From the NCBI GenBank assembly GCA_020723545.1, contig DYIS01000004.1, positions 1-29,879 on the forward strand: a stretch of DNA of 29,879 nucleotides. The letters run 5' to 3'. The translations under genes and the position numbers were made by a program. Origin of the DNA: Ktedonobacter racemifer (GTDB lineage: Bacteria; Chloroflexota; DTOL01; JACQYG01). Of the stretch, positions 6,140-21,071 are shown piece by piece (position 1 is the first letter of the stretch; the number at the start of each line of letters is the position of its first letter). A model generated the notes under the pieces. It was not told where the DNA came from. It searched no databases and saw nothing but the letters and a program-made list of their open reading frames with translations.

Positions 6140-6189
6140 ATTGCCTTGACAATGCTGAGCCGGGGGCAACCATCGCTACCGGGGCTTTT

Positions 6190-6203
6190 CTTTACCACTA
6201 AAG
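6190..6203 (+). repeat. Copy of recurring near-palindromic motif TTRCYASTAAAG
   Basis: CTTTACCACTAAAG in the convergent intergenic gap. Confidence 0.55.
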
Positions 6204-6239
6204 GAGCCGAGAAGGTGGGGGACAGGTTGCGAAGGATGA

Positions 6240-6836
6240 TCAGGCCAGGTAGAAGGAGCGGGCGAAGTTGATAGCGATGCGGAAGAGCGGTTCAACTATT
6301 CCTTTCAGGGCAACGGTGGCCAAAAGCGCGGCAATCCCCCCGACCACGGCACCGCCCAGTATATCTGAGGGAAGGTGGACCCCGCAGTAGACCCTGGCAA
6401 ATGAGAAGAGCAAGGCGAGCAGAAGGAGCCCGGCGCCGGCGCGGCGATTGAATAGCCAAATGATCAGGGCGAAGGTAAAGGCCATGGCCGCAGGGTTGCT
6501 GGGGAACGAGGAATCGGTGGGCCGATAGTAGAGCAGGTTCACCGTCAAAGTGGCGAAGGGCCTGGGGCGGAAGTAGAGCCCGTTGTTGGCGGCGACGATA
6601 GCGGCGGACAGGCCCTGGGCCAGTATAGCGTAAAGCACTGCTCTTTGATTGGTCTTGCGCAGATGGGGATTGGCTCCGGAGAACCAGAGGGCCAGAAGCA
6701 CCAGGGACATGCTCACCGGGACAAAATACTCGTTGACCAGCAGCCGCATGAGGCCGTCCAGCCAGGGAGACCGGCCAACCAGTCCGTTAACCGCTTGGAA
6801 CAGGGCCCGGTCGAGCTCAGTTATCTCCGGGATCAT
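6240..6836 (-). CDS. PAP2-family phosphatase (BcrC/undecaprenyl-pyrophosphate phosphatase-like)
   Basis: Start reassigned to ATG 6836 (GAGAGGAAAG upstream). Motifs RPRPF, SFPSNP and ARVYCGVHLPSD; several TM helices. Confidence 0.8.
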   Translation of the reverse strand: MIPEITELDRALFQAVNGLVGRSPWLDGLMRLLVNEYFVPVSMSLVLLALWFSGANPHLRKTNQRAVLYAILAQGLSAAIVAANNGLYFRPRPFATLTVNLLYYRPTDSSFPSNPAAMAFTFALIIWLFNRRAGAGLLLLALLFSFARVYCGVHLPSDILGGAVVGGIAALLATVALKGIVEPLFRIAINFARSFYLA

Positions 6837-7386
6837 CGGTCTTTCCTCTCGCTTTCCTCGGCCTCCGGCCGCTAGCTCTGGTACACCTTCCAGGTGAAGC
6901 GAGGAAACACCTGGAAGGTGTACCAGGGAGAAGAGAGATCCACCACCCATACGCGAAAAGGCGCCTGGCCCGGGCGGCGGGGAGGCGCAGGGGGGCCCGA
7001 AGGAGCTGGAAATAGCTGACCCTTTTCAAGGCGTCCAGGCCAGCCGGCGGGGGACCGGGCGGGTTAGCCTGGGTCGGCGGGCGCGGGGACCGGGGTTGGC
7101 GGTTCACCAGCGAACTTAAGGCCAGGGTGATCGAGATGGCCAGGAGGCAGCTCAGGGAAAAGAAAAAGATGAGCTGTGTGCCCTCCAGGCCGGGCACGTT
7201 CCGGTCAGCGGAGGAGAAAAACCAGTAGTAGGAGACAGAAATGGTGAGAAGGCCGGCCAGGGAGGAGGCCCTGGACCTGGCCGGGAAGAAGAAGAGGCCC
7301 TGGAGGCCATAGCGAGCAGCCACCAGTTGCAGGGTACCCAGGGCGCTGAGGGTGACGAAGATCATGTAGGCAGGCTCGATTGGCAT
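6817..7386 (-). CDS. Hypothetical membrane protein (about 3 TM) with a low-complexity C-terminal tail
   Basis: GGAGG RBS, hydrophobic segments, overlaps the PAP2 start; the last ~40 aa read through an inverted repeat. Confidence 0.65.
   Translation of the reverse strand: MPIEPAYMIFVTLSALGTLQLVAARYGLQGLFFFPARSRASSLAGLLTISVSYYWFFSSADRNVPGLEGTQLIFFFSLSCLLAISITLALSSLVNRQPRSPRPPTQANPPGPPPAGLDALKRVSYFQLLRAPLRLPAARARRLFAYGWWISLLPGTPSRCFLASPGRCTRASGRRPRKARGKTDDPGDN
6878..6926. repeat. Perfect 19-bp inverted repeat with 11-nt spacer (REP-like hairpin)
   Basis: CTGGTACACCTTCCAGGTG (6878-6896) and CACCTGGAAGGTGTACCAG (6908-6926). Confidence 0.9.
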
Positions 7387-7420
7387 GGCACCTCCGGCGC
7401 AACGAGCTAGAAGCGCCCTT

Positions 7421-7480
7421 CTTTGCCAGTAAAGAAACTAGTCAAAATCGTGCTTGGTCTTGCCTTCTTTAGTGGCAAAT
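7421..7480. repeat. Two inverted copies of TTRCYASTAAAG forming a 14/15-bp inverted repeat
   Basis: TTTGCCAGTAAAGAA (7422-7436) versus TTCTTTAGTGGCAAA (7465-7479), 28-nt spacer. Confidence 0.75.
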
Positions 7481-7552
7481 AAACTTACCGGCCGGACCTC
7501 TAGGGGCGATGAGTGCTCGGTGGTGGACGTCCGAGCGATGAGTTGCAGGTGG

Positions 7553-7581
7553 ATTATATTGCCAGGTACTGTGGCTGTCAA
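7553..7581 (-). promoter_or_regulatory. Consensus sigma70 promoter for the membrane protein/PAP2 operon
   Basis: Minus strand TTGACA (7581-7576), 17 nt, TATAAT (7558-7553). Confidence 0.7.
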
Positions 7582-7611
7582 GGACAGGGGAAGGCCGCCC
7601 TGGGCGAAGCC

Positions 7612-7640
7612 TTGCCTTGGCAGTCGAAGTCCGATATAAT
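7612..7640 (+). promoter_or_regulatory. Sigma70-type promoter for USP, TrkA-C ORF and murI
   Basis: TTGCCT (7612-7617), 17 nt, TATAAT (7635-7640). Confidence 0.55.
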
Positions 7641-7722
7641 TGCCAGCAGAGGGTGGGAGTGATCCGGGATTTTTTATTAGAAACAGTGCCAGCCGCTTTG
7701 CCTTGGCGAAGGTAAGGTTATT

Positions 7723-8142
7723 ATGTACAAGCACATCTTGTGTGCCACACGAGGTGGGGAAAACTCGGAGAAGACCGAGGAGAGGGCTATCAGGCTAGCT
7801 CGGGAGAACCAGGCGGGCCTGACGTTTCTGTATGCGGTTGATCCAGCCTTCGCCCAGGACCCTCGGAACGAACCAGGCCCGATGAGTGAGCCGGAGGGCC
7901 CCCATTGGCTAGGCGAACTGGTGCTGGAGATGGCGGTGCGGGTGGCCGAGAGACAAGGGGTTCAGGCCCAGCAGGAACTGCGGCAGGGGGAGGTGTTTGG
8001 CGAGATCAAGGAGTATCTGGCCCATCACCCGGAGGTGGATCTCCTGATGATGGGCGCGCCGGTGGGCGAGGTGAAGAACCATTTCAGCGACTTCGTAGGT
8101 GAGGTGGTGGCCAGCGGCAGAGAGGTCCTGATCGTAGAGTGA
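7723..8142 (+). CDS. Universal stress protein (UspA family)
   Basis: MYKHILCAT start, LTFLYAVD strand, GEVFGEI and DLLMMG motifs; 139 aa. Confidence 0.88.
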   Translation: MYKHILCATRGGENSEKTEERAIRLARENQAGLTFLYAVDPAFAQDPRNEPGPMSEPEGPHWLGELVLEMAVRVAERQGVQAQQELRQGEVFGEIKEYLAHHPEVDLLMMGAPVGEVKNHFSDFVGEVVASGREVLIVE

Positions 8143-8154
8143 TGAGGCCTGGGA

Positions 8155-8331
8155 ATGGAACTGGAGAAACGGCTGAGGAAGGTCGTCCTGGCGGTCCGGC
8201 GAAGCGATGGGTCCATGATCAATAATCCGAGCGCAGCGACGCAGTTGCAGCCAGGAGACAAGCTGATAGCCATTGGCACCAACAGCCAATTGAAGGCCCT
8301 GGCGCAAATGGTCAGGGTCACAAGGCCGTAG
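8155..8331 (+). CDS. Small stand-alone TrkA-C (RCK_C) domain protein, 58 aa (below the ORF-track cutoff)
   Basis: Manual translation MELEKRLRKVVLAVRRSDGSMINNPSAATQLQPGDKLIAIGTNSQLKALAQMVRVTRP matches the RCK_C pattern VLAVRR..G..I.NP.....LQPGD.L..IG. Confidence 0.7.
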   Translation: MELEKRLRKVVLAVRRSDGSMINNPSAATQLQPGDKLIAIGTNSQLKALAQMVRVTRP

Positions 8332-8349
8332 TGGGTGGGGAGGCGACGA

Positions 8350-9192
8350 TTGTCCGACCAGCGACCCATTGGGGTCTTCGACTCCGGGGTGGGCGGCCTC
8401 TCGGTGTGGCGGGAACTGGCGGCCCAACTTCCCCGGGAGAGCACGATCTACTTCGCCGACAGCGCCAATTGTCCATATGGCCCCCGGTCCAACCAGGAGA
8501 TCCAGGCCCTGGCCCAGGGCATCGCGGGCTTCCTGGCAGCGGAGGGGGCCAAGCTGATCGTGGTGGCCTGCAACACGGCGTCGGCGGCCAGCCTGGCTTA
8601 TCTTCGCTCCCTCTTCTCGGTGCCCATAGTGGGGATGGTGCCGGCGGTGAAGCCGGCGGCGGCGATGACGGCCAGCAAGCGCGTTGCGGTGATCGGCACC
8701 GCAGCCACCATCCAGGGACAGGTCTTCGCTGAGCTGGTGGAGCGTTTCGCTAACGGGGTGGAGGTGTACACAAAAGCGTGTCCCGGGCTGGTGCAGCAGG
8801 TGGAGAGGGGAGAACTGGAAGGTCCGGAGACACTCAGTCTCCTGCAGCGATACCTGGATCCGCTTCTGGCCCAGGGGATCGATACGCTGGTCCTGGGTTG
8901 TACACATTATCCCTTCTTGGAACCGGCCATTAGACGGGTGGTGGGACCTGATGTTATCATAATCGACCCCAGCCCTGCGGTGGCCAGGCAAACGGGAAGG
9001 GTTCTGGAGGAAAAAGGGTTGCAGGCCCATCTCGAAAGCCAGGCCGAGCATTTATTTTATACAACCGGCGACCCGAACCGTTTCCGTGAGATGATTCATA
9101 CCCTGCTCGGCATCTCTCCCGCGGTGCACCGGGCCGTGTGGCAGGGGCCTGGATTGAAACCGGTGGGCCCAACTGACTCGACAGACCATTGA
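8350..9192 (+). CDS. murI: Glutamate racemase
   Basis: DSGVGG, YGPRS, ACNTAS and VLGCTHYP motifs; TTG 8350 chosen because GGGGAGG lies 6 nt upstream. Confidence 0.95.
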   Translation: MSDQRPIGVFDSGVGGLSVWRELAAQLPRESTIYFADSANCPYGPRSNQEIQALAQGIAGFLAAEGAKLIVVACNTASAASLAYLRSLFSVPIVGMVPAVKPAAAMTASKRVAVIGTAATIQGQVFAELVERFANGVEVYTKACPGLVQQVERGELEGPETLSLLQRYLDPLLAQGIDTLVLGCTHYPFLEPAIRRVVGPDVIIIDPSPAVARQTGRVLEEKGLQAHLESQAEHLFYTTGDPNRFREMIHTLLGISPAVHRAVWQGPGLKPVGPTDSTDH

Positions 9193-9220
9193 CTGCTATC
9201 ACCAGGCTGTATATAATACA
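9189..9220 (+). promoter_or_regulatory. Sigma70 promoter with a palindrome over the -10
   Basis: TTGACT (9189-9194), 17 nt, TATAAT (9212-9217); TGTAT-ATA-ATACA palindrome at 9208-9220. Confidence 0.6.
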
Positions 9221-9246
9221 TGTACAAGTGACCGTTGGAGGGGGAG

Positions 9247-9615
9247 ATGTTGGAGCACCTCTTCTCATCAAAGGCGAGGATCAAGCTGCTGACCAGGTTT
9301 CTCAGCGATCCTGAGGCCAAATTGTACACCAGACAGTTGGAACGAGAGCTAGATGAGCCGGTGAATGCCGTGCGCCGGGAACTGGAGCGGTTTGAGGCCC
9401 TGGGCCTCTTGCAATCCTTTAAGGAAGGCAACCTGAAATACTACACAGTGAACCGCGAGTTCTCGATCTACCCAGAGCTGAGAGGCATTATCTTGAAGGC
9501 CCAGGGAATGCCCGGGTTGGCCCGGCCCGGGCCCTCGGCGTCGGCTGGCCTGCCCGGCCACCTGAAAAGCGAGCCCACCAGAGCCAGAGAGATGGTGGTG
9601 GGGGAGACCGATTAG
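9247..9615 (+). CDS. Winged helix-turn-helix (ArsR-like) DNA-binding protein
   Basis: LFSSKARIKLL...LYTRQLERELDEPVNAVRRELERFEALGLL...EGNLKYYTVN; ATG 9247 follows GGAGGGGGAG. Confidence 0.78.
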   Translation: MLEHLFSSKARIKLLTRFLSDPEAKLYTRQLERELDEPVNAVRRELERFEALGLLQSFKEGNLKYYTVNREFSIYPELRGIILKAQGMPGLARPGPSASAGLPGHLKSEPTRAREMVVGETD

Positions 9616-9630
9616 CAATCGGCGTTTCCG

Positions 9631-10692
9631 ATGGCGACCTGTCGTGGCTGTGGAAAAACGTCCCCTCTTGTCTCCTCGACGCTAAAGGCGTGCAACGATT
9701 GTTTACGCCTGACCCCGGCTAAGCTGCTTCCGTACATATTTAATGTTCACGGCAAGGCAAGGCGTGAATTTGGGCTTCCGGAGCGCCCTCCCAGAACTGC
9801 AGGCGGCAAGAGGTGTCCTCTTTGTGTGAACGACTGCCGCCTGGGCGAAGGGGAAAGGGGGTTCTGTGGCCTGCGAATTGGCCGCGGTGGGAGGCTTGTA
9901 CACCTGGGCGGTACAGCGGCCAGGGGTATCCTGCACTGGTACTACGACCCCTTGCCCACGAACTGTGTGGCGGACTGGGTCTGCCCCGGGACGAGGCAGT
10001 ACGGCAAGGTCAACCTGGCGGTTTTCTACGGCGCCTGCACCTACGACTGCCTGTTTTGTCAGAACTGGCACTTTCGGGAGCTTGGGCCGGAGACGGACGG
10101 CCTGGGCGCCGAGGAACTGGCAGCCAAGGCCAATTGGCAGACCTTCTGCGTCTGCTTCTTCGGCGGTGACCCCACGCCCCAGATGCCCCATGCCCTGGCG
10201 GCCGCGCGGCTCCTGGCCAGGAGGGGCGTGCGCATCTGCTGGGAGACCAATGGCTCCATGCACCCGGAGGTCCTGGATCAGGCGGTGCGGCTCTCCCTGG
10301 AGACGGGAGGGTGTGCCAAGTTCGACCTGAAAGCCTACTCCGAGGGCCTGCACCTGGCCCTGACCGGGATAACGAATCACCGGGCCCTGGAGAACTTCTC
10401 CCGGGCGGCGGCGCTGGTGGCGGAACGACCGGACCCGCCTCTGGTGATCGCCAGCACGCTCCTGGTCCCAGGATACGTGGACGCCCACGAGGTGGGGCAG
10501 TTGGCGCGGTTCATCGCCGCCATCAACCCTCAGATCCCGTATGCGCTACTGGCCTTTCATCCCCACTTTTACCTGCACGATCTCCCCCGCACCTCCCGTC
10601 GCCATGCCGAGGCCTGCTTGCAGGCGGCCAGGGAGGCCGGCCTGACCAACGTGAAGATCGGCAACCGGCAGTTATTGTCCAACGCGTACTGA
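9631..10692 (+). CDS. Radical SAM protein (PflA/AmmeMemoRadiSam-like) with extra N-terminal Cys motifs
   Basis: CTYDCLFC (Cx3Cx2C), FFGGDP, WETNG, KFDLKA; N-terminal CRGC/CNDC and CPLCVNDC...GFCG. Confidence 0.9.
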   Translation: MATCRGCGKTSPLVSSTLKACNDCLRLTPAKLLPYIFNVHGKARREFGLPERPPRTAGGKRCPLCVNDCRLGEGERGFCGLRIGRGGRLVHLGGTAARGILHWYYDPLPTNCVADWVCPGTRQYGKVNLAVFYGACTYDCLFCQNWHFRELGPETDGLGAEELAAKANWQTFCVCFFGGDPTPQMPHALAAARLLARRGVRICWETNGSMHPEVLDQAVRLSLETGGCAKFDLKAYSEGLHLALTGITNHRALENFSRAAALVAERPDPPLVIASTLLVPGYVDAHEVGQLARFIAAINPQIPYALLAFHPHFYLHDLPRTSRRHAEACLQAAREAGLTNVKIGNRQLLSNAY

Positions 10693-10718
10693 AGAGGCGT
10701 TTGGGACAGAGAGCAATT

Positions 10719-10732
10719 TCTTACTAGTAAAG
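10719..10732 (+). repeat. Copy of recurring motif TTRCYASTAAAG
   Basis: TCTTACTAGTAAAG in the convergent gap between the radical SAM gene and mfd. Confidence 0.55.
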
Positions 10733-10759
10733 GTGGCATGGTAGCCGCCCGCAGGGCGG

Positions 10760-13700
10760 TCAAGCCATCCCCAGAAGTTCGACCAGGGCCTCTTTCCACC
10801 TGGCCCCCAGGCCCCGGCGGCTAAGGCGCATGGAAGTGGGGCCTACCTTAAGGGAAGCCCCGAAACGGCGTTGGGCCTTCGCCATATCGATGCCAACGGC
10901 CTCTCGGAAGCGCATCACCACGTCGCTGCCGTGAAGGCTAATGACCCTGATACCCCTGCTCAGAACCAGAGCGCGCAGGCGTACCAGGTAGAGAAGGTTT
11001 TCGACCGTGCCCGGCACGGCTCCGAAGCGGTCGGCCAGCTCCTGGGCGAGGCTATTGACCTCCTCGGGAGACCGGGCGCCTGCCAGGCGCTGGTAGAGGG
11101 TTAGCCGCGCGGCCTCGTCCGGCACGTAGTCGCTGGGGATGTAGGCGTCCAGCCCCAGGTCCAGGGAGACGCTGGGGGGCTCGACCAGGGTGGGGGCTCC
11201 CTTTACTAGCAAGGAAGCCGCACCCGTCTCCTCCCTTAGCTCCTCCACGGCCTGGGCCAGGAGGCGACAATAGAGGTCGAAGCCCACGGCGCTGATGTGG
11301 CCGTGCTGCTCTACCCCCAGGAGGTTGCCGGCCCCGCGGATCTCCAGGTCCTTCATGGCGATGCGAAAGCCCGCCCCCAGCTCGGTGGCATCGTAGATGG
11401 CCTGGAGTCGCTTCCTCGCAGCCTCGCTCAGTTGAGACCCCCGGCTGTGGAGGAAATAGGCGTAGGCCCGGTTGGCACCCCGGCCCACACGGCCTCGCAG
11501 TTGATAGAGCTGGGCCAGGCCGAAATGGTCGGCCCGGTTGACGATGATGGTGTTGGCGTTGGGTATGTCCAGGCCTGATTCGATGATGGCGGTGCAAACC
11601 AGGACGTCGGTGAGGCCGCCCGCGAAGTCCAGCATGACCTTTTCCAGGTCCTCCTCTGGCATCTGGCCGTGGGCCACGGCGATGCGGGCCTCGGGCACCA
11701 GCCGGGCCAGCACCTGGCCCATGTATTCGATGCTCTGGACCCGGTTGTGGACGAAGTACACCTGCCCACCTCGATCCAACTCCCGCAAAATGGCTCCCCG
11801 GATGATAGCCCCGTCGTACTCCGCCACCTGGGTTACGATGGGCAGCCGTTCCTCCGGCGGGGTTTCCATGGTGCTCATGTCTCGGACCCCCACCAGGGAC
11901 ATGTGCAGGGTCCGGGGTATGGGGGTGGCGGTGAGGGTCAGGACATCCACCTCCCGGCGGAGCTCTTTCAGGGTCTCCTTGTGCATGACGCCGAAACGCT
12001 GCTCCTCGTCGATGATCACCAGGCCCAGGTTCTTGAAGGCCACGTCTTTCTGGATCAGGCGGTGGGTGCCGATGACGATGTCCACGGACCCCTCTCGGAG
12101 GCCTTTCACCACCTCCTGCTGCTCTTTTTCGGAGCGAAAGCGGGAGAGCATCTCCACCGTCACGGGGAAGGCCTGGAGCCGCTCGCGGAAGGTGTTGAAG
12201 TGCTGCTGGGCCAGGATGGTGGTGGGCACCAGGAGCGCCACCTGCTTGCCGTCGACCACCGCCTTGAAGGCCGCCCGCAGAGCGATCTCGGTCTTGCCGT
12301 AGCCTACATCGCCACAGATCAAGCGGTCCATGGGCCGGGGGGCTTCCATGTCCAGCTTGACCTCATTGATGGCCGCCAGTTGATCCGGGGTCTCGATGTA
12401 GGGAAAGGATGCCTCCAGATCGGCCTGCCAGGGGAAATCCGGGGCGAAGGCGTACCCGGCCGCTGCTTCTCGGGCAGCGTAGAGGCCCAACAACTTCCGG
12501 GCCACGTCCTTTATCGCCCGCTTAGCGCGGGCCTTGACCCGTTCCCAATCGGTGCCGGAGAGCCTGGTCAGGGTGGGCGGCGCCTCTCCGGCGCCGACGT
12601 AACGGCTGATGCGGTCCATCTGGTCCGCAGGCACGTACAGGCGGTCGCCCTGGGCGTACTCCAGGTGCAGGTACTCGCGCTCCGCGCCCTCCAAGGCCAG
12701 CCTGACCAGCCCCCGGTACCGGCCAATGCCGTGCTCGACGTGCACCACGAGGTCTCCCAAGGCCAGGTCAGAGAGAAAGGGCTCCCGCGGCGCTGCCCTC
12801 CGGGGGAGCGCCCGGCGAGGCTTGGCCCAACCGAAGATCTCCACATCGCTGAAGATCAGGGTGGTGGAGGCAGGCGGCAGGGCGCCCCAGCCCTGGGCCA
12901 AGGAACCCTGGATCACGGTCAGGCTATTGGGTGGAGGAAGGCCAGCCGGGCTCTCCTGGGGCACGGCGAAGATATCGCGTTCCTGAAATAGCGCGGATAG
13001 GCGCCGGGCCTGATGGCTGGTGATCACCAGGCGCCGGCCCTCCGCCAAGTGCTTTTGGCAGTCGTCCAGGAATTGCTTCAACCGGCCGGCATAGGGAGGG
13101 ACGGCCTGAAAAGCCGAGGCCAGCAGGTCTGTTTCCGGGCGCGCCGTCTGGGCCCGCCCCCAGTATCCCAGGGCCAGCCGGGGCAACCTTTGAAGCTGGG
13201 CCTGAAGTTCTTCCCAGCGGAAGCAAGGGTCGGGATATTCCGGCGGAAGCTCGCCGTGCTCCAGGAAGAGAGCCCTCAAATCCTGGGCCTGTTTATGGAG
13301 GTACCGCGCCTCGGCCTCCAGGCCTTCCGGCCCATCCAGGATCACCGTGCCGGAGAGGTGATCCAAAAGACCGGTGGACCTGTCCGGCGGATATAGGAAC
13401 GGCAGATAGAACCCTTCCCCGGCGAAGCCCTGGCCCTGAGCCAGGCGCTTCAGGTCCCGGGACCAGTTTTCCTGAAAGCGAGGCGAGCACCCGGTTATGT
13501 CCAGCTTCGAGAGCCGGGAGGCTGCCTCCCGGGCCCGGGCGGGCACGACCTCACTAGCGGGGGTGATCAATAGCCGGGAGAGGCGTTTTTGCGAGCGCTG
13601 GGTGGCCGGGTCGTAAAGCCGGAGTGACTCCACCTGGTCGCCGAAGAACTCCACCCGGGCCGGCAGCTCTGATGTGGGAGGGAAGATGTCCAGGATGCCG

Positions 13701-14287
13701 CCCCGGCGGCTGAAGAAACCAGGGGTGTCCACCAGGCTGGACGGCTGGTAACCGCCTTCCAGCAGTTGGGCCACCAGGGCCGCCGGGTCCACGCGCTGGC
13801 CCAGGGAGAGTTCATGGGTCCCGGCCGCCAGGTCTCGGGGGGAGATGGTCTTGTGCGCAAGCCCTCGAACGGAGGTGACGGCCACCAGCCGGGCAAAGTC
13901 AATTCCGTTGGCCGGGCCCAGGCCAGTTAAAGCGCCGATCCTGACCAAGGCGGCCAGGCGCTCGCGGCAGGACCCCAGGTCGGCCGAGGGGCGCTCGTAG
14001 GGCAGGGCCTCGGGCTCAGGGTACAGAAGCACCTGGGCCGGGAAGGCCGACCATAACGCCAGTTGATCGGCCAGGCGCTTCGCTCTCTCCAGGTTGGCCG
14101 TTACCACCAGCAGCGGGGCGACGGCGTCCCTTTGCAGACAGGAAATCAGAAAGGGGATGACGGCCTCAGGCAGGGTGAGCGGCAAGCATCGGTCGGCGGC
14201 GGCAGGGATCCCTCCGAGGATCTGCTCCCGCAGCCAGGCATAGCCAGGTATCTCGTCGATCAGAGAGAGCAAACCAGAGAGCGACAT
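10760..14287 (-). CDS. mfd: Transcription-repair coupling factor
   Basis: UvrB-homology region, RID, GDVGYGKTE, DEEQRFGV, TATPIPRT, QLRGRVGR and C-terminal TRCF domain; 1175 aa. Confidence 0.97.
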   Translation of the reverse strand: MSLSGLLSLIDEIPGYAWLREQILGGIPAAADRCLPLTLPEAVIPFLISCLQRDAVAPLLVVTANLERAKRLADQLALWSAFPAQVLLYPEPEALPYERPSADLGSCRERLAALVRIGALTGLGPANGIDFARLVAVTSVRGLAHKTISPRDLAAGTHELSLGQRVDPAALVAQLLEGGYQPSSLVDTPGFFSRRGGILDIFPPTSELPARVEFFGDQVESLRLYDPATQRSQKRLSRLLITPASEVVPARAREAASRLSKLDITGCSPRFQENWSRDLKRLAQGQGFAGEGFYLPFLYPPDRSTGLLDHLSGTVILDGPEGLEAEARYLHKQAQDLRALFLEHGELPPEYPDPCFRWEELQAQLQRLPRLALGYWGRAQTARPETDLLASAFQAVPPYAGRLKQFLDDCQKHLAEGRRLVITSHQARRLSALFQERDIFAVPQESPAGLPPPNSLTVIQGSLAQGWGALPPASTTLIFSDVEIFGWAKPRRALPRRAAPREPFLSDLALGDLVVHVEHGIGRYRGLVRLALEGAEREYLHLEYAQGDRLYVPADQMDRISRYVGAGEAPPTLTRLSGTDWERVKARAKRAIKDVARKLLGLYAAREAAAGYAFAPDFPWQADLEASFPYIETPDQLAAINEVKLDMEAPRPMDRLICGDVGYGKTEIALRAAFKAVVDGKQVALLVPTTILAQQHFNTFRERLQAFPVTVEMLSRFRSEKEQQEVVKGLREGSVDIVIGTHRLIQKDVAFKNLGLVIIDEEQRFGVMHKETLKELRREVDVLTLTATPIPRTLHMSLVGVRDMSTMETPPEERLPIVTQVAEYDGAIIRGAILRELDRGGQVYFVHNRVQSIEYMGQVLARLVPEARIAVAHGQMPEEDLEKVMLDFAGGLTDVLVCTAIIESGLDIPNANTIIVNRADHFGLAQLYQLRGRVGRGANRAYAYFLHSRGSQLSEAARKRLQAIYDATELGAGFRIAMKDLEIRGAGNLLGVEQHGHISAVGFDLYCRLLAQAVEELREETGAASLLVKGAPTLVEPPSVSLDLGLDAYIPSDYVPDEAARLTLYQRLAGARSPEEVNSLAQELADRFGAVPGTVENLLYLVRLRALVLSRGIRVISLHGSDVVMRFREAVGIDMAKAQRRFGASLKVGPTSMRLSRRGLGARWKEALVELLGMA
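11201..11214 (-). repeat. Copy of recurring motif TTRCYASTAAAG inside mfd
   Basis: Minus strand CCTTGCTAGTAAAG, encoded by TTG CTA GTA AAG in the linker before the TRCF domain. Confidence 0.5.
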
Positions 14288-14299
14288 ATTCGGCGGAAG

Positions 14300-14854
14300 C
14301 TAGTTAAACTGATTCATGGCGGCGGTGAGGCCTGAGGTCAGAGCACATTCCACCGCCTGGGCTACCTGCTCCTGCAACGGATCAAGGATTGGCAGCTCTT
14401 CCGGGGTGAAGTCGCTGAGCACATAGCTCACCTGGTCCCCATCTGGTGGGCGGCCGATCCCCACTCGCAGACGGGGGAAGTCCTCGGTGCCCAGGGCGGC
14501 GATGATGGATTTCATCCCCTTGTGACCCCCGGCGCTACCCCCGGGGCGCAGCCGCAGGGAGCCCAGGGGAAGGTCCAGGTCATCGTAGATCACCAGGAGG
14601 TTGCCCAGGGACAGGTGATAGCGGCGCACCAAGGCGCCCACAGCCAGGCCACTCAGGTTCATGAACGTGGTCGGTTTGGCCAAAACCACCGGGACATCCA
14701 GGACCGCTCCCGAGGCCACCCGGGCCTGGCAGAGCCTGGTCCACCCGCCGATGTGGTGCTTGCGGGCCAGGTGGTCCAGGCACTGGAAGCCCAGGTTGTG
14801 ACGGTTGTTGGCATACTCTCGGCCCGGGTTACCCAGGCCCACGACCAGCTTCAC
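14300..14854 (-). CDS. pth: Peptidyl-tRNA hydrolase
   Basis: (V)KLVVGLGNPG, RHNLGF, DDLDLP and GHKG; GTG start overlaps the upstream TGA. Confidence 0.95.
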   Translation of the reverse strand: MKLVVGLGNPGREYANNRHNLGFQCLDHLARKHHIGGWTRLCQARVASGAVLDVPVVLAKPTTFMNLSGLAVGALVRRYHLSLGNLLVIYDDLDLPLGSLRLRPGGSAGGHKGMKSIIAALGTEDFPRLRVGIGRPPDGDQVSYVLSDFTPEELPILDPLQEQVAQAVECALTSGLTAAMNQFN

Positions 14855-15555
14855 TCGCTTCCCCCACTCAACAGCGCCCGGGCCAGGGCGATGAGGCCCA
14901 GCAACAGGGCCACGCCGCCGGCCAACACCAAGCCCAGAAGGAAAGGCCTTAGGCAGAGCTGCTGAAGGTCGATCTGCAGGCTGGGCAGGAGCGAGGACAC
15001 CGGCCGGGGGGTGATGCCGGGGGTGGCAACGGCGGTGGGCGTAACCAGGACCACTGGGGTGCCGGGGGACTGGGGCGTGGTGGCCGGCAGCGGCGTCTCC
15101 GTGGGCGTGGAAGTGGCGGTGGGCGTGGGGGTGGAGGCGTTCTCCACCTGCACGGTGACCCGTGCCTCCTTGAACTGGCCCCGGACATCGATCACCCGCA
15201 GGGTCACCACGTAGGTGCCGTCTCGGAATTGCAGCGTATTCCATTGGTATAGAGGCCCATTGATCACCCTGGCCTTGTTCACGAAAAGGAAAGCGGGTTG
15301 GGCGAAGCCCGGGCCCAGGAGATGGATCTCGTAACGGTCAAAACCAGGGATGGAGGCGCTGCCAGTCACCTGTACCGTGCCCCGAACCACTGAATTGGGG
15401 GCAGGCTGATCGATGCGGTACACCTCCTCCGGCCCCGGCGTGGCGGTCTGAGCCAGGGGCCCGGCCTGGGCAGAAGGCAGGTGCGTAGAGCAAAGGATAG
15501 TCAAAACCATCCCGAATGTAGCGAGGACTTGGGGCGAGAATCTAGTTGCCCTCAT
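14851..15555 (-). CDS. Secreted Ig-like-domain protein with P/T-rich stalk and C-terminal membrane anchor
   Basis: Signal-peptide-like N-terminus, beta-rich domain (VRGTVQVTGSA...WNTLQFRDGTYVVTLRV), TPTPTATSTPT stalk, C-terminal TM. Confidence 0.7.
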   Translation of the reverse strand: MRATRFSPQVLATFGMVLTILCSTHLPSAQAGPLAQTATPGPEEVYRIDQPAPNSVVRGTVQVTGSASIPGFDRYEIHLLGPGFAQPAFLFVNKARVINGPLYQWNTLQFRDGTYVVTLRVIDVRGQFKEARVTVQVENASTPTPTATSTPTETPLPATTPQSPGTPVVLVTPTAVATPGITPRPVSSLLPSLQIDLQQLCLRPFLLGLVLAGGVALLLGLIALARALLSGGSE

Positions 15556-15721
15556 TTCATTCCGCGAGTGGGTATTCCCTCAGGGACCGGCACCTTGCCC
15601 CCTGAAGCCAAAAGCATCCATCAGGGCGCCGTGGACCTGGGCCCTGCCCTTTGGTTGGGGACGTAGTCCAGGTCGCACTGGGGGGTCCGGCCGGTCCAGA
15701 TCATAGTTAGTCTACCATAGA

Positions 15722-15750
15722 TTGACCAGGCCTGGCAAGTTTGCTATACT
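15722..15750 (+). promoter_or_regulatory. Sigma70 promoter for the ECF sigma operon
   Basis: TTGACC (15722-15727), 17 nt, TGn-extended TATACT (15745-15750). An overlapping divergent TTGCCA-18-TAGACT (15738-15709) may drive the pth-mfd operon. Confidence 0.6.
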
Positions 15751-15805
15751 GGCCCTGCTCCGTATCTCATGGGGGCTTTCCGTGTTCTATTCCCAGGGAG
15801 CCATA

Positions 15806-16471
15806 ATGATCGCCGGGAACGTGCAGGCGCTCTCCACCGAAGGCGATGACCGCCTCATTGAGAAGGCGAAGGAGAACCCCGAAGCCTTTGGGGCGCTCTA
15901 TCAAAAGTACCTGGCCCTGGTGTATAATTACATTTTTTATCGCGTGCACAACGTCCACGAGGCGGAGGACCTGACCGCCAAGACCTTCTACCAGGCGGTC
16001 TTTCACCTGCGCCGCTACACCAACCAGGGCGTTCCGTTCTCCGCCTGGTTGTTTCGCATCGCACACAACCTGGTGGCCAACTGGCACCGGGACCGACAGC
16101 GGCGCAAGACCTACTCGCTGGAGGCCATGGCACCGGGGTGGCGCCAGGAGGCCGAGATAACCTCACTTTCCGAGGGGATGGAGCGGAAGGAGAGAGCCCA
16201 GTGGCTTAAGGAGGCCATTGGCCGACTCTCGGCCGAAAGGCAGCAACTCCTCTTGCTGAAGTTTGTGGATGGGCTTTCCAATGCCGAGATCGCCACGATC
16301 ATGGGCAGGACCGAGGGGGCGATCAAGGCGCTCTTGCATCGCACGCTGTTCGCGCTGCGCCAGGAAATGGGAGGGCGTGGAGATGAGGCATCCGACGAGC
16401 CTCATCTGATGGCATCTTCCGGTCTTGCTTCGTCAGGGCTGATGCCGGAGGCCAGGCATGAGGAAAGATAA
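15806..16471 (+). CDS. ECF-family RNA polymerase sigma factor
   Basis: Region 2 EAEDLTAKTF...FSAWLFRIAHN and region 4 LSNAEIATIMGRTEGAIKALLHR; ATG 15806 follows AGGGAG. Confidence 0.92.
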   Translation: MIAGNVQALSTEGDDRLIEKAKENPEAFGALYQKYLALVYNYIFYRVHNVHEAEDLTAKTFYQAVFHLRRYTNQGVPFSAWLFRIAHNLVANWHRDRQRRKTYSLEAMAPGWRQEAEITSLSEGMERKERAQWLKEAIGRLSAERQQLLLLKFVDGLSNAEIATIMGRTEGAIKALLHRTLFALRQEMGGRGDEASDEPHLMASSGLASSGLMPEARHEER

Positions 16472-16841
16472 TGCTGTAGGCGAACGGCTGCCGTTCACCG
16501 AGGTGCTGGCGGAGTCGGTGGATCAAACCAGGCTGGAGGCGGTCAAGATCAAGGATTATCTAGCCCGCCACCCCGAATACCACCAAGAGCTGGAACCCCT
16601 GCTCTATACTGCTCAGACCATCCGGAAGAACCTGCCACCGATTCGCCCCTCCCCTGCCTTTCAAGAGAGCCTGAGGGAAGCCCTGGTGCATTCGGCTCGG
16701 GCTCAGGAGAGCAGGAGAAGGGGGGTCCCCCCATCGATCCAGGTGGTGCCCAGCCCCCGCCTGAGCCGCGAGCTCCTGGTGGCGATGGCGCTGGCCGGGC
16801 TGGCGTGTTTCGTCTTAGGGCTGAGACGCCGCCGGCCGTGA
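16458..16841 (+). CDS. Putative membrane-anchored anti-sigma factor
   Basis: Overlaps the sigma gene; helical N-terminus (YLARHPEYHQELEPLL...PSPAFQESL) and one C-terminal TM. Confidence 0.6.
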   Translation: MRKDNAVGERLPFTEVLAESVDQTRLEAVKIKDYLARHPEYHQELEPLLYTAQTIRKNLPPIRPSPAFQESLREALVHSARAQESRRRGVPPSIQVVPSPRLSRELLVAMALAGLACFVLGLRRRRP

Positions 16842-16968
16842 GGTAGCTGCCTGGCGAAAATAGCCTCAAGCTTTGCCTCTTTTGTGTCAACCCCCAATCA
16901 TCCAGGCGAAAATCAGCTCTACGAGGTAGGTAAAAAGGAGCCCATTGTACTAAAGGGCACAATATGCC

Positions 16969-17003
16969 TTGACTATTGGGCCAGGTTGTGATAATATACA
17001 CTA
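16969..17003 (+). promoter_or_regulatory. Hydrogenase operon promoter with a Rex/CRP-like palindrome over the -10
   Basis: TTGACT (16969-16974), 17 nt, TGn-extended TAATAT (16992-16997); TTGTGATAATATACACTA at 16986-17003. Confidence 0.6.
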
Positions 17004-17031
17004 CACCTGGCCTATAGACGAGGAGGTCAAG

Positions 17032-18060
17032 ATGCCCTTAAAGGTGATAGAGAAACGCGACGTGGAGCCCCTTATCCGCCACCTGATGGAGCGCTTCCAG
17101 GTGGTAGGGATCAAAAAAAAGGACGGCAAAAACACCTACGGCGTGATCGAGAGCCCGGCAGAGCTCCGCCTGGATTCCTGCGCCACCATCACCTCCCCCA
17201 AGAAGTATTTCTTCCCTCAAAGAGAGACGCTCTTGCAGTTTGCGGTGGACGGCTCTTGGGAGCCCCAGGCCGTGGTGGAGGCCCAGCCCAGGATCATCTT
17301 CGGCATGCGCCCGTGCGACATCGCGGCCACCTGGATGCTGGATATGGCTTTCTCCGAAGTCAACGCCGACGCCAACTATCTGGAGAAACGCAAACGAGCC
17401 CTGATCATCGGCGTGGACTGCAAGGAGCCCTGCGACGAGTATTGCTTCTGCAAGAGCATGGGCACCCTGGAGGTGGAGACCGGCTACGACCTGTTCTTCA
17501 CCGCTGCCGACGACACCTACATCGTGCGCACAGGCACCCCGGAGGGCGAGGCCCTTTTAGGGGAGTGGGGGAAGGCCCGGGAGGCGCTGTACGAGGACCG
17601 GGTCAAGCTGCGGGCGGTGCAACGGGAAAAGGACGAGAGGTTCAAAGAGGCCCTGGAGTTCGACGTGGAAGAACTGCCGAGGTTCTTGGAAGACAGTTAC
17701 CGCAGCCTCCTGTGGGATGTCCTGGGCGAGAAGTGCCTTTCCTGCGGGTCTTGCAACCTGGTCTGCCCCACCTGTTACTGCTTCAACGTCCTCGACGAGG
17801 TTAAGCTGAACCTGTCGGAGGGGGAGCGCTACCGGGTCTGGGATTCTTGCCAGTTGGAGGGGTTCGCCAAGGTGGCCACCGGGGAGAACTTCCGGGAGCG
17901 CCGGGGCGATCGCGTGCGGCACCGCTTCTTCCGCAAGGGCAAGTACATGAAGGAGATGTTCGGCCGGTTCGGCTGCGTGGGCTGCGGACGCTGCACCCGG
18001 GCCTGCCTGGTGCACATCAACCCCATCGAGGTGTACAATCAACTGAAGGGCGGTGAATAG
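17032..18060 (+). CDS. hydB: Group 3b NiFe hydrogenase beta subunit (2x[4Fe-4S], AsrA/FlxB-like)
   Basis: GMRPCD, CLSCGSCNLVCPTCYC, WDSC and CVGCGRCTRAC; ATG 17032 follows AGGAGG. Confidence 0.88.
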   Translation: MPLKVIEKRDVEPLIRHLMERFQVVGIKKKDGKNTYGVIESPAELRLDSCATITSPKKYFFPQRETLLQFAVDGSWEPQAVVEAQPRIIFGMRPCDIAATWMLDMAFSEVNADANYLEKRKRALIIGVDCKEPCDEYCFCKSMGTLEVETGYDLFFTAADDTYIVRTGTPEGEALLGEWGKAREALYEDRVKLRAVQREKDERFKEALEFDVEELPRFLEDSYRSLLWDVLGEKCLSCGSCNLVCPTCYCFNVLDEVKLNLSEGERYRVWDSCQLEGFAKVATGENFRERRGDRVRHRFFRKGKYMKEMFGRFGCVGCGRCTRACLVHINPIEVYNQLKGGE

Positions 18061-18910
18061 GGTGGACGCTAGACTCCTGCCAACCGTGGATCTGGACACC
18101 ATTTTCCGGCCTCGCCTGGCGCAACTCCTGAACGTGGAGGAGATGACGGCGAAGGAGAAGCTCTTCACGTTCCAGCTCAAGGACGGGACGCCCCTGGGGC
18201 AGGATCCCGGCCAGTTCGTGGAGGTGTCGGTGTTCGGCATCGGCGAGGCCCCTATCTCGGTGTCGTCATCCCCGACCCGTGGCGATACCTTTGAGCTCTG
18301 CGTGCGGGCGGTGGGGAACGTGACCAATGCCCTGCACCGCATGGCGCCGGGCGCCACGGTGGGAATCCGCGGGCCTTTTGGCCAGGGCTTTCCGGTGGAG
18401 GAGATGAGGGGCCGCAACGTCCTCTTCGTGGCCGGCGGCCTGGGACTGGTTCCCCTGCGCTCATTGATCCATGCCGTCCTGGACATGCGGCAGGATTTCG
18501 GTGCCGTGACCATCCTCTATGGCACCAAGAATCCCTCCGAGCTGCTTTTCCGGAACGAACTGGCCCAGTGGGAAGCTCGAGATGATGTGGACTATCAGGT
18601 CACGGTGGACGTGGCCGACGAATCCTGGCGCGGCAACGTGGGGGTGATCACCACCCTGTTCCGGGGCCTGCCGGTGGACCCCCGCAACACCGTGGCGGTG
18701 ATCGTGGGCCCGCCAGTGATGTACAGGTTCGTGATCCGGGAGGTCCTGGGGAAGGGCCTGCCCATGGGTCGAATCCTCGTCTCCCTGGAGCGCCGGATGA
18801 AGTGCGGCGTGGGCAAGTGCGGTCATTGCCAGATCAACGGCGTGTACGTCTGCCAGAAGGGCCCGGTCTTCACCTATTCGGAGCTACGGAATCTGCAGGA
18901 GGCGATATGA
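18053..18910 (+). CDS. hydG: Group 3b hydrogenase gamma subunit (FAD/NAD(P)-binding, [2Fe-2S])
   Basis: GQFVEVS...GEAPISVSS, RGPFG, AGGLGLVPLRS, VGPPVM and MKCGVGKCGHC...VC. Confidence 0.9.
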   Translation: MNRVDARLLPTVDLDTIFRPRLAQLLNVEEMTAKEKLFTFQLKDGTPLGQDPGQFVEVSVFGIGEAPISVSSSPTRGDTFELCVRAVGNVTNALHRMAPGATVGIRGPFGQGFPVEEMRGRNVLFVAGGLGLVPLRSLIHAVLDMRQDFGAVTILYGTKNPSELLFRNELAQWEARDDVDYQVTVDVADESWRGNVGVITTLFRGLPVDPRNTVAVIVGPPVMYRFVIREVLGKGLPMGRILVSLERRMKCGVGKCGHCQINGVYVCQKGPVFTYSELRNLQEAI

Positions 18911-19647
18911 TGAAGCCGAAGATTGCGGTGTTCGAGTTCTCCAGTTGCGAGGGATGCCAGTTGATGTTCGCCAACCTGGAGGCCGAGATCCTGGAGGTCC
19001 TGGGAGCAGTGGAGATCGTGAACTTCCGGGAGATCATGACCGAGAAGGGCGACGACTACCAGATCGCCTTCGTGGAAGGGGCCATCACCCAGGAATCGGA
19101 GATCGAACGGCTGAAGAAGATCCGCGAGCAGGCTAAGGTGTTGGTGGCCCTGGGAGCCTGCGCCCACCTGGGCGGGGTGAATTGCATGAAGAACTATCAA
19201 GACCAGGAGGAGGTCCGCCGCTACGTGTACAAGGAGCGAGCGGAGTGGTTCGACACCATCCCGGCCCGGCCGCTGAGCGCGGTGGTGCCGGTGGACTACG
19301 CAGTCCCGGGGTGCCCCATCGATAAGAAGGAGCTACTCGAGGTCACCAAGAGCTTGCTATTAGGCAAAAAACCCAGCCTCCCGGACTACCCCGTGTGTGT
19401 GGAATGCAAGATGGCCGAGAACATCTGCGTCTTCGACAAGGGCATGACCTGTCTGGGGCCGGTGACCCGGGCGGGCTGTGCGACCATCTGCCCCACCTTC
19501 GGGAACAAGTGCGAGGGCTGCCGGGGGCTGGTGGACAACCCTAATGTCAACTCGCACAAGCAGGTGCTCCAGGAACACGGGCTCTCGGTGCAGGGGATAC
19601 TGAACAGCTTTCGCATGTTCGAGGGCTACTTGGAGGTGGCTAAATGA
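18907..19647 (+). CDS. hydD: Group 3b hydrogenase delta (small) subunit
   Basis: SSCEGCQ, VEGAI, LGACA, VPGCP and distal CVEC...CLGPVTRAGC...CP...CEGCRG; ATGA overlap. Confidence 0.9.
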   Translation: MMKPKIAVFEFSSCEGCQLMFANLEAEILEVLGAVEIVNFREIMTEKGDDYQIAFVEGAITQESEIERLKKIREQAKVLVALGACAHLGGVNCMKNYQDQEEVRRYVYKERAEWFDTIPARPLSAVVPVDYAVPGCPIDKKELLEVTKSLLLGKKPSLPDYPVCVECKMAENICVFDKGMTCLGPVTRAGCATICPTFGNKCEGCRGLVDNPNVNSHKQVLQEHGLSVQGILNSFRMFEGYLEVAK

Positions 19648-20930
19648 GAGACCTGAGCCTGAGCGTCCACCACATCACCCGGGTGGAGGGGCATGCCAAC
19701 ATCACCGTGGACGTGAGGAAGGGAGAGATTAAGGAGTTGAAGCTGGAGATCGTGGAGTCTCCCCGCTTCTTCGAGGCCATGTTGCGAGGCCGCTCCTGGG
19801 AGGACGTGGCACACATCACCTCGCGCATTTGCGGCATCTGTGCCGTGGGCCACACCGCTGCCTCCTTGCGAGCCACCGAAGCGGCCTTCGACTTCGTGCC
19901 CTCGGAACAGACGGTGCTATTGCGCAAGCTGATCATCGACGGGGAAACGATGCAGAGCCATCTCCTGCACGTGTACTTTTTGGTGGCGCCGGATCTCTTG
20001 GGCGTTGGCAGCGTGATACCCCTGGCTGCCACGCACCCGGAGGTGGTGAAGAGGGCCCTGCGCCTGAAAAAGCTGGCCAACGACATCTGCTACGTGGTGG
20101 GCGGCCGGGCGGTGCACCCCATCTCCATGGTGGTGGGTGGGTTCACCCGCCCCCCCACGGCCCAGGAGCTGGGGGGCCTACGCCAGAGGCTGGTGGAGGC
20201 GGTGCCGGACCTGGAGGCCACCGCGGAGCTGATCAAGGCCCTGCCCCTGCCCAGGTTTGAAAACCCGACCGAGTATTTGGCCCTGAAGAGCCAGGCGGAA
20301 TATGCCTTCTACGACGGCGATATCGCCTCCACCGACGGCGACGTCACACCAGTCAAGGACTACCGCCAGAAGATCAGGGAGACGGTGGTAGAGCACTCCA
20401 CGACCAAACACGTGAGCGGCAACCGGCAGTCGCTCATGGTAGGTGCCCTGGCCCGCTTCAACAACAACCACGAGCAGCTCCACCCGCTGGCGAAGAAGGT
20501 GGCCCGGGACCTGGGGCTCCGGGCCCCCTGCCATAACAGCTTCATGATCAGCGTGGCCCAGGTGGTGGAGGCGGTGCACGCGGCCGAGGACGCGATCATG
20601 GCCATCGACGAGCTCTTGGGCCGGGGGTTGAAAGATGAGCCGATCAAGGTCCCGGTGAAGGCGGGCAGTGGAGTGGGGGCGGTGGAGGTGCCCCGGGGGA
20701 CCCTCTACCACGAATACAGCTATGATTCTAAAGGCGTCATAAGCGACTCTAACCTGATCATCCCCACCGGTCAGAACATGGCCAACATCGAGTTCGACCT
20801 GCGGGCCATCCTGCCGCAGATCCTGGACAAGCCAAAGGAGGAGATCGCCCATACCCTGGAGATGGTGGTGAGAGCGTACGACCCCTGCATCTCCTGCTCC
20901 ACCCATCTCCTGGACGTGAGGTTTGTTTAG
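19644..20930 (+). CDS. hydA: Group 3b NiFe hydrogenase alpha (large) subunit
   Basis: TRVEGH, L1 RICGICAVGH, EVPRG, L2 RAYDPCISCSTH plus a 7-aa C-terminal extension. Confidence 0.93.
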   Translation: MRDLSLSVHHITRVEGHANITVDVRKGEIKELKLEIVESPRFFEAMLRGRSWEDVAHITSRICGICAVGHTAASLRATEAAFDFVPSEQTVLLRKLIIDGETMQSHLLHVYFLVAPDLLGVGSVIPLAATHPEVVKRALRLKKLANDICYVVGGRAVHPISMVVGGFTRPPTAQELGGLRQRLVEAVPDLEATAELIKALPLPRFENPTEYLALKSQAEYAFYDGDIASTDGDVTPVKDYRQKIRETVVEHSTTKHVSGNRQSLMVGALARFNNNHEQLHPLAKKVARDLGLRAPCHNSFMISVAQVVEAVHAAEDAIMAIDELLGRGLKDEPIKVPVKAGSGVGAVEVPRGTLYHEYSYDSKGVISDSNLIIPTGQNMANIEFDLRAILPQILDKPKEEIAHTLEMVVRAYDPCISCSTHLLDVRFV

Positions 20931-20955
20931 GGCGAAGGCATGGGTAGATCGAATT

Positions 20956-20972
20956 CTTTACTACTAGTAAAC
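20956..20972. repeat. Overlapping double half-site variant of the recurring motif
   Basis: CTTTACTACTAGTAAAC: TTTACT/AGTAAA inverted arms around ACT. Confidence 0.4.
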
Positions 20973-21071
20973 CAGGCTGGCTGAGGCGCCCTGGTGCCAT
21001 CGCGATGCGCGAGGCCGGGCTGGGGGCGGGGACGAGATGCGCCTGATGTTGAAGTTAAAGAGGAGGGCAAA

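Follow-up and report, generated by a model that had tools for sequence, protein, structure and literature searches.

Short palindromic repeats that are confined to particular lineages, such as the REP, dRS3/NTS and HIP1 families, are poorly understood, and each enzyme newly linked to one of them (RAYT, Ssn) is both informative and useful. In Neisseria, the dRS3 repeats are conserved only in their 6-bp ends, which surround 8 variable bases, NTS possess oriented flanks, and these repeats bound the mosaic arrays referred to as NIMEs, where they serve as insertion and recombination points for mobile DNA (PMC1797815; PMC11893778). The element considered here is a palindrome of 18-20 bp encountered within the window, a 29,879-nt contig (DYIS01000004.1; C256 in our numbering) of GenBank assembly GCA_020723545.1 from Ktedonobacter racemifer. 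The genome to which the window belongs (G000) is a metagenome-assembled genome (MAG) of an uncultured groundwater Chloroflexota, 2.57 Mb in size with 61.7% GC, distributed over 322 contigs and 84% complete. The palindrome is present there in about 350 copies, and with a probability of roughly 55% it represents a genus-specific, very short interspersed repeat family that is tied to mobile DNA and not to regulation or chromosome organisation.

The motif resembles the dRS3 repeats that bound the Neisseria mosaic elements, and these may well be its closest parallel: it too bounds mosaic arrays and appears to serve as an insertion or joining point. It differs in being conserved and symmetric at all 18 positions, and whereas dRS3 and NTS are GC-rich and extragenic, the motif is AT-rich within a GC-rich genome and about 40% of its copies are genic. 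The REP and REPIN sequences associated with RAYT, and the GTAG- and CGTC-tagged palindromic repeats reportedly described by Di Nocera et al. in 2013, are likewise short palindromes specific to a species or genus, occurring in hundreds of copies with unrelated flanks and sometimes in pairs. The motif, however, has no GTAG or CGTC head, is shorter (18-20 bp), forms a near loop-less perfect dyad without stem covariation and is often genic, and no RAYT gene flanked by its copies was found.

Rickettsia palindromic elements are selfish palindromes of ~100-150 bp that are inserted in-frame and add a peptide segment to the host protein. The motif is similarly found in-frame within intact genes (among them those for PolA, SelB, Mfd, ValRS and a NuoG-like protein), at permissive positions in linkers and loops, but it spans only six codons and, in contrast to a plain addition, takes the place of a similarly long stretch. 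Elements of the IS630/Tc1 type use a CTAG target and duplicate the TA. The motif is comparable to such target sites in that a ~190-bp miniature inverted-repeat transposable element (MITE) is found in its central TA and one empty site retains an intact motif; a target preference is nevertheless insufficient, because it fails to explain 350 target copies in one genus only, and the IS630-type transposase genes found do not lie next to the motif. Noc and SlmA sites and parS are palindromes of 14-16 bp, present in tens of copies per genome and often genic, which are conserved, positioned with respect to ori or ter and each served by a dedicated protein. The motif shares with them the short palindrome and the frequent location inside genes, yet its sites evolve neutrally, show no local enrichment and are accompanied by no extra ParB paralog. 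Overall, the family is unusual in being very small, strictly symmetric, AT-rich in a GC-rich genome, frequent in essential genes and tied to the joining of repeats.

Sequence, symmetry and gene context of the repeat

An earlier reading of the window, made from the sequence alone, recognised five exact matches to a 12-mer, TTRCYASTAAAG, plus a double half-site. The coordinates and strands of all five are correct, and such a number is far above chance (mean 0.01 per window in 100 dinucleotide-preserving shuffles, none of which reached five). The 12-mer is the core of a longer unit, (t)TTCTTTACTAGTAAAGAA(a), which can be written by halves as (t)TTCTTTAC-TA-GTAAAGAA(a). The ideal palindrome proposed in the sequence-only reading, CTTTACTAGTAAAG, has the right sequence but falls short of the true extent. 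When 231 sites are aligned, the positions that flank this 14-mer (-2, -1, +14 and +15, none of them used for selection) are T,T / A,A in 82-85% of cases, the next position outward is weakly T/A, and beyond it the sequence has the composition of the genome; the strong preference at unselected positions indicates that the palindrome is 18-20 bp long. In the window each site, read in context, lies inside the longer dyad CTTTAC-YR-GTAAAG. The possibility that the motif is a piece of a larger repeat was ruled out, as the flanks are unrelated to each other and at genome composition.

Across the genome, the 12-mer pattern has 152 matches where order-2 and order-3 Markov models predict 0.4-0.7, and the perfect 14-mer has 41 (0.0003-0.002 expected). 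At 1, 2 and 3 mismatches the 14-mer is found at 80, 112 and 121 sites, respectively, compared with 0-1, 0-6 and 19-57 sites for eight composition-matched control palindromes, which yield no perfect match. The number of real copies is thereby put at ~350, equivalent to 1 per 7.3 kb and ~0.25% of the genome. The outcome named beforehand as fatal to the motif, a frequency at background together with a lack of conservation in close relatives, is not what is seen: counts are far above the Markov background and ~74% of sites are at the orthologous position in sister species. Sites are mildly clustered (variance-to-mean ratio ~1.5 in 5-kb bins), and pairs 43-48 bp apart recur, including sites 2 and 3 of the window. 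An apparent 2-3-fold enrichment at contig ends was traced to the gene caller, which leaves these ends 'intergenic' (the outermost 300 bp of contigs account for 17% of intergenic bases).

The two halves are held in a rigid arrangement, the spacer between them being 2 bp in 66 cases as opposed to 0-1 cases at every other spacing. Isolated halves occur at background frequency, which rules out the half-site as a monomer signal. The RNA could fold into a stem of 7-8 A-U pairs capped by a CUAG loop, and a few copies possess extended palindromic flanks, but the hairpin is weak (-4.2 kcal/mol; z-scores -2.05 to +0.54), mirrored positions do not covary (13 complementary double changes where 19.5 are expected), and Rfam returned no family match in the window or in three repeat-rich loci. 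The fixed spacer, the lack of covariation, the weak hairpin and the Rfam result speak against a structural hairpin and in favour of a pair of independent half-sites that are recognised by sequence in double-stranded DNA. Being symmetric, the motif is also non-polar, as had been argued from its occurrence in both orientations. The information content of the sites (Rseq, 25-29 bits) is about twice what is required to locate them (Rfreq, 12.8-13.4 bits for 230-350 sites), and copied repeats or signals of the drive type, unlike operators, typically show an excess of this kind.

The commonest deviations from the consensus are T to C and A to G changes within the central CTAG, giving CCAG or CTGG, which fits a genome-wide depletion of this tetranucleotide. 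CTAG is strongly depleted in G000 (2,143 observed, 8,939 expected from base composition), and about half of all ACTAGT sites (72 of 146) fall within the motif. The spectrum of mismatches, calculated from the mismatch counts, has a heavier tail than would be given by a single burst.

Gene context was assessed with our own crude codon-usage caller (2,545 genes, 87% coding). Perfect sites are inside genes in 22 of 41 cases and imperfect sites in ~35%; AT-rich 14-mers in general are genic in 50%. The distances of intergenic sites to gene starts and stops are broadly spread with none preferred, in agreement with the earlier view that this is not a promoter element. Genic sites lie deep inside long, well-scoring genes, and Pfam confirms their hosts as DNA polymerase I (PolA), SelB, two Ser/Thr kinases, a NuoG-like oxidoreductase, ValRS, a DUF2207 protein, a TPR/YkuD protein and a Wzy/TPR protein. 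Only two stop-free frames are used, reading FFTSKE or SLLVK, and the third is avoided because it holds TAG. These copies fall between Pfam domains, usually in inter-domain linkers: the PolA site is located between the 5'-3' exonuclease and 3'-5' exonuclease domains, and that of a Ser/Thr kinase after the kinase domain. Where the hexapeptide readings FFTSKE and SLLVK occur in proteins of the genus, they are best annotated as repeat-derived.

Distribution, turnover and association with other repeats

The phylogenetic distribution of the motif is narrow. Sites with at most 2 mismatches number 233, 181 and 223 in the three species of the genus, namely G000 and its two sister species (G001 and G002), and 0 and 0 in two genomes of the same order; a reversed control pattern gives 2-10 matches. 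No perfect copy was found in 38 further relatives. When one genome from each of 185,579 species was searched, the 18-mer occurred in several copies in just two MAGs, both of groundwater Chloroflexota, these being the two sister species, and single matches elsewhere came from low-GC genomes. A phage origin was rejected, as 2.9 million viral contigs contain 2 single chance matches. A full-text literature search for the core string returned cloning primers only, and the earlier opinion that the motif is undescribed is correct.

Orthologous DNA from the two sister species (87-97% identical) was compared for the window and 13 other regions, along with the 18-mer loci from the species-wide search. 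Among 95 pairwise comparisons of sites with at most 2 mismatches, 25 (26%) involve a site that is replaced or absent in the other species. The difference per base is 0.03-0.13 in retained sites and 0.05-0.11 over 57 bases of flank to either side; small indels occur in 13 of the retained sites. Since conditioning on a good site should lower the apparent divergence of the site, yet sites diverge at the rate of their flanks, there is no sign of purifying selection.

Presence or absence of a site takes the form of replacement, wherein a site allele of 18-21 nt stands opposite an unrelated sequence of 21-27 nt that is shared by the other species, between flanks that are almost identical (for example C109:3473, C13:7514, C53:2489 and C293:16302; reverse cases are seen from G001 and G002). 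Such patches are found in the genes for PolA, a Ser/Thr kinase, the DUF2207 protein and the Wzy/TPR protein, and the differences in length are multiples of three, as coding DNA would predict. Lineage-variable sites are more often perfect than those kept in all three species (9 of 14 versus 4 of 17; hypergeometric one-sided p = 0.027), which suggests that at least some of the variable sites are recent gains. As an outgroup for polarity, only PolA relatives at 53-57% identity were found, in 80 Chloroflexota loci on metagenome contigs, and all of these lack the motif.

The motif is also linked to other repeats. A few left halves that seem isolated continue into members of several repeat families and not into random DNA, and pairs of left and right halves enclose inserts of 50 to ~420 nt. 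At two loci the insert is the ~190-bp MITE, which is positioned precisely at the central TA, has a TA at each end and is flanked by the motif halves. This MITE has inverted ends (…TTATTTCAAAATT…) and thus possesses the terminal inverted repeats and the TA duplication of its class; the 18-mer itself shows no duplication of flanking bases of the Tc1/IS630 type. At one of the two loci (C41) the empty site in G002 is an intact, degenerate motif, from which it follows that the motif was the target of the MITE there; at the other (C133) the sister species has an unrelated 21 nt. The two copies (G000 C133:328-520 and C41:9690-9910; L155 and L156) have the ends (…AACTTATTTCAAAATT…) and an internal GC-rich hairpin, and more copies are located in G001 (C280, C344 and C135) and G002 (C229).

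Other inserts are mosaics of hairpin repeats, such as a family centred on AGCCTTAAGGCT. About half of the mosaic array ends abut a motif half, although the motif makes up no more than ~0.25% of the genome, and at C109:3144 the spacer between one pair of halves differs from species to species. This is the arrangement of NIME-like arrays, in which a short palindrome bounds arrays whose content varies between strains. The AGCCTTAAGGCT hairpin has stems of at least 10 bp (ttggactgc...gcagtccaa) and is found in G000 at C4:7303, C65:105, C146:4780, C177:5010 and C302:1511 among other places; the arrays also hold the hairpins gatcctcccgccccgatccagatcggggcgggaggatc and gcccaaccgcgttgggc.

Possible mechanism and competing explanations

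If the motif is a repeat family tied to mobile DNA, its two rigidly spaced 8-bp halves would form the recognition site of a putative dimeric enzyme, either a transposase or a recombinase, with the central TA/CTAG as its point of action. Copies would be laid down as whole units and not maintained afterwards; they would decay at the neutral rate, most often by change of CTAG to CCAG or CTGG and by small indels, and would survive wherever 18 AT-rich bases are tolerated, that is in intergenic DNA and in protein linkers, where they read FFTSKE or SLLVK. The same site would be the insertion or joining point for the TA-duplicating MITE and for the mosaic hairpin arrays. The enzyme concerned may work in an undescribed way, because copies appear as replacements and not as insertions with duplications.

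Several points weigh against this interpretation. New copies lack a target-site duplication and appear as replacements of similar length, and we know of no transposition mechanism that yields such replacements. The ~74% of sites still in place in the sister species would be equally expected under weak selection. The direction assigned to most replacements is uncertain, as the local phylogeny may differ from the genome average and there is no outgroup closer than the relatives at 53-57% identity. The comparison covers three species only, the MAG is incomplete and fragmented, and gene calls come from a crude caller. Finally, no enzyme was found among the Y1, IS630-type, GIY-YIG and ParB candidates, although this absence is weak evidence because insertion sequences are usually lost from MAGs.

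Among these candidates, a RAYT link was rejected, as the sole Y1_Tnp gene of G000 belongs to an ordinary IS605 tnpA-tnpB pair on a contig without the motif. An IS630-type transposase was likewise rejected as a partner, since the copies found are adjoined by neither the motif nor a matching inverted repeat. The IS605-type tnpA with a tnpB-like open reading frame (ORF; G000 C77:8503-9314) and a partial IS630-type gene (DDE_3; C268:1-1000) are both located at contig ends with unassembled termini. One canonical ParB_N gene is present in G000, one in G002 and none was detected in G001; the lack of an extra paralog is a weak result, as completeness of the MAGs is 73-92%. Two relatives that lack the motif, G003 and G004, carry two ParB_N genes each.

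The main rival, though unlikely, holds that the palindrome is the binding site of an abundant host protein (a nucleoid-associated, Noc/SlmA-like protein or a global repressor homodimer) and that the insertions are secondary, an AT-rich CTAG palindrome being an attractive target in a 62% GC genome. The perfect dyad, its unvarying 2-bp spacer and the separation of the best-conserved bases (TT and C) by one helical turn would suit such a protein, and the absence of hairpin covariation fits a dimer on double-stranded DNA. Noc and SlmA sites occur in numbers of a similar range, and the ~74% positional retention, the pairs 43-48 bp apart and four sites around the promoter of a kinase-FHA gene are also in its favour. 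However, retained sites diverge as fast as or faster than their flanks, 26% are replaced, Rseq is about twice Rfreq, and perfect sites are, if anything, more often genic (22 of 41). Nor is there a bias towards promoters or gene starts or a set of related targets, as would be expected of a regulon: the genes near sites and clusters (kinases, PolA, SelB, Tad pilus, RuvX, MltG, GDH and POR) are unrelated in function. Together with the ~40% of sites inside genes and the lack of a fixed distance to starts or stops, this leaves the roadblock regulator suggested in the sequence-only reading unsupported. Its proposal of a ParB/Noc-like organiser near oriC fares no better, as the window contains no skew switch, parB is located on another contig, site density equals the genome average (4 sites with at most 3 mismatches, 4.1 expected), there is no extra ParB paralog and the sites evolve as fast as their flanks. 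In annotating these Chloroflexota, motif sites should not be taken as operators.

Somewhat less probable again is the idea that the 18-mer is itself mobile. Its two 8-bp ends around TA would then constitute the smallest self-propagating DNA element described; a putative dimeric enzyme would cut and replace a target of ~21-27 bp without duplication, and the same ends would carry the MITE and the mosaic arrays.

A signal for DNA uptake or self-recognition, propagated through transformation bias in the manner of DNA uptake sequences (DUS) and uptake signal sequences (USS), is improbable. Hundreds of copies spread over genes and spacers in one genus only, an excess of information as for DUS, genic copies in poorly constrained parts of proteins, the presence of comEC and a Tad-pilus locus with five sites would all suit it. 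Known uptake signals are, however, about ten-fold denser than 1 per 7 kb, and transformation bias should keep recombining lineages close to the consensus, yet the sites diverge at the neutral rate or faster, indels are frequent, and the differences are patch replacements and indels and not stepwise point changes. The motif halves that flank other repeats would also be left unexplained, and comEC, which is present in all five genomes including the motif-less ones, is uninformative for uptake. The earlier suggestion of an uptake-type signal is therefore not upheld.

Of slightly lower probability still is a role as target of a defence-type enzyme or a nuclease with site specificity; a relative of Ssn, the single-strand GIY-YIG nucleases directed at the Neisseria NTS/dRS3 hairpin repeats, would be an example. 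Ssn enzymes offer a precedent, being tied to hundreds of palindromic repeats per genome with a specificity that differs by lineage (PMC11893778). All three genomes possess small, single-domain GIY-YIG genes, and the motif-bounded mosaic arrays resemble NIMEs. Ssn/NTS-SRM systems are recognised by a small, co-occurring GIY-YIG gene flanked by the repeat (PMC11893778), but the GIY-YIG genes seen here are not flanked by the motif and are also found in the motif-less G003 and G004, by which this link was rejected. The motif is in addition fully symmetric without the oriented flanks of NTS, shows no stem covariation and forms only the weak hairpin of -4.2 kcal/mol.

Least probable of all is a structural function as a hairpin in RNA or DNA (terminator, mRNA stabiliser or cruciform), for although the stem of 7-8 A-U pairs with its CUAG loop can be drawn, some copies lie between convergent genes, a few have extended palindromic flanks and a GC-rich hairpin stands at the place of one window site (site 4) in G001, it is the sequence and not just the pairing that is conserved, the weak stem lacks compensatory covariation (z-scores -2.05 to +0.54), ~40% of copies are in coding regions in either orientation, and there is neither a U-tract nor an Rfam match.

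Sites of the window and neighbouring features

The window contains six sites, which are listed below with the associated features; relatives present in other sequencing runs (X2, X3 and X5) were compared as assembled contigs.

6123..6231 (no strand): segment of 109 nt that carries site 1, present only in G000
6188..6205 (no strand): site 1, TTCTTTACCACTAAAGGA, with its 14-mer core at 6190-6203 and 2 mismatches; between the convergent Wzy_C/GH fusion and PAP2 genes
7419..7436 (no strand): site 2, TTCTTTGCCAGTAAAGAA; the minus-strand gene 6817-7386 begins 35 nt downstream of it, with its ATG at 7386
7465..7482 (no strand): site 3, TTCTTTAGTGGCAAATAA, 46 bp from site 2; degenerate in G000, a perfect 18-mer in G002
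7553..7581 (minus strand): sigma-70-type promoter TTGACA-17-TATAAT, a consensus pattern match only; sites 2 and 3 lie in its leader
10717..10734 (no strand): site 4, TTTCTTACTAGTAAAGGT, with the left arm one base short; between a convergent radical-SAM gene and mfd
11199..11216 (no strand): site 5, CCCTTTACTAGCAAGGAA, within mfd near codon 1020; the linker concerned joins Helicase_C (831-931) to TRCF (1039-1132)
20954..20973 (no strand): site 6, TTCTTTAC-TAC-TAGTAAAC, with a 3-base insertion; between the genes for a NiFe hydrogenase large subunit and a cNMP-binding protein

The placements given in the sequence-only reading are borne out: two copies lie between convergent genes (sites 1 and 4), a pair occupies a 5' leader downstream of the minus-strand promoter at 7581-7553 (sites 2 and 3), one copy is inside mfd (site 5), and the double half-site is a genuine copy of the motif interrupted by three bases (site 6).

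Among relatives, these sites vary in several ways. The 109-nt segment around site 1 is missing from G001 and G002 and from the relatives of runs X2 and X3, where ~28 other bases link position 6096/6122 to ~6232. All three species have sites 2 and 3, which nevertheless drift, and in the relative in run X2 a single site replaces 7418-7483, that is both sites and their spacer. Site 4 is kept in G002, and G001 has at exactly that place an unrelated 42-nt GC-rich hairpin. In mfd, G002 has a near-perfect site, TTCTTTACCAGTAAAGAG, with 6 differences in 20 nt compared with ~7% in the flanks.

The G001 hairpin at the place of site 4 reads cccctcgatgtcccggag ttgaa ctccgggacatcgagagga (L005, ~2760-2810). 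Comparable private hairpin insertions are found beside other sites, with 33 nt in the G001 PolA gene and 30 nt in the Wzy-TPR gene of G001 and G002. A dispersed repeat of ~58 nt is located at 6871-6928 of the window, close to where the PAP2 gene meets the upstream ORF. Further copies lie in G001 on C65 (both strands) and C276, the repeat is substituted by 22 other bases in the relatives in runs X3 and X5, and the contig depth over 6804-7004 is 2-3 times that of neighbouring bins.

Outside the window, one group of sites is located at G000 C109:6455-6654 (L067), where four copies occupy a 200-bp spacer upstream of the Ser/Thr kinase-FHA gene. One of them lies immediately beside a TGG-TATAAT box; all three species have kept the array, and in G002 one copy contains a 13-nt tandem duplication. 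The Tad/Flp pilus locus (G000 C293:3100-4400; L101), which includes TadE/G-like and TadC-like T2SSF genes, holds five copies in 1.3 kb and is among the densest clusters of the motif. A copy with one mismatch is found inside comEC (G000 C13:5096) and is common to all three species.

A second AT-rich repeat family is encountered in the same genome. It is built of 7-bp units (AATTTCG/AAATTCG) with a consensus of about GGGGTAATTTCGAAATTCGAATTTCGCAATTCGAAATTTAGC, and its sequences are the next commonest 12-mer palindromes (25 and 16 copies). Loci of this family include G000 C3:754-800, C5:15374 and C8:8854, as well as others on C83, C129, C195, C212 and further contigs.

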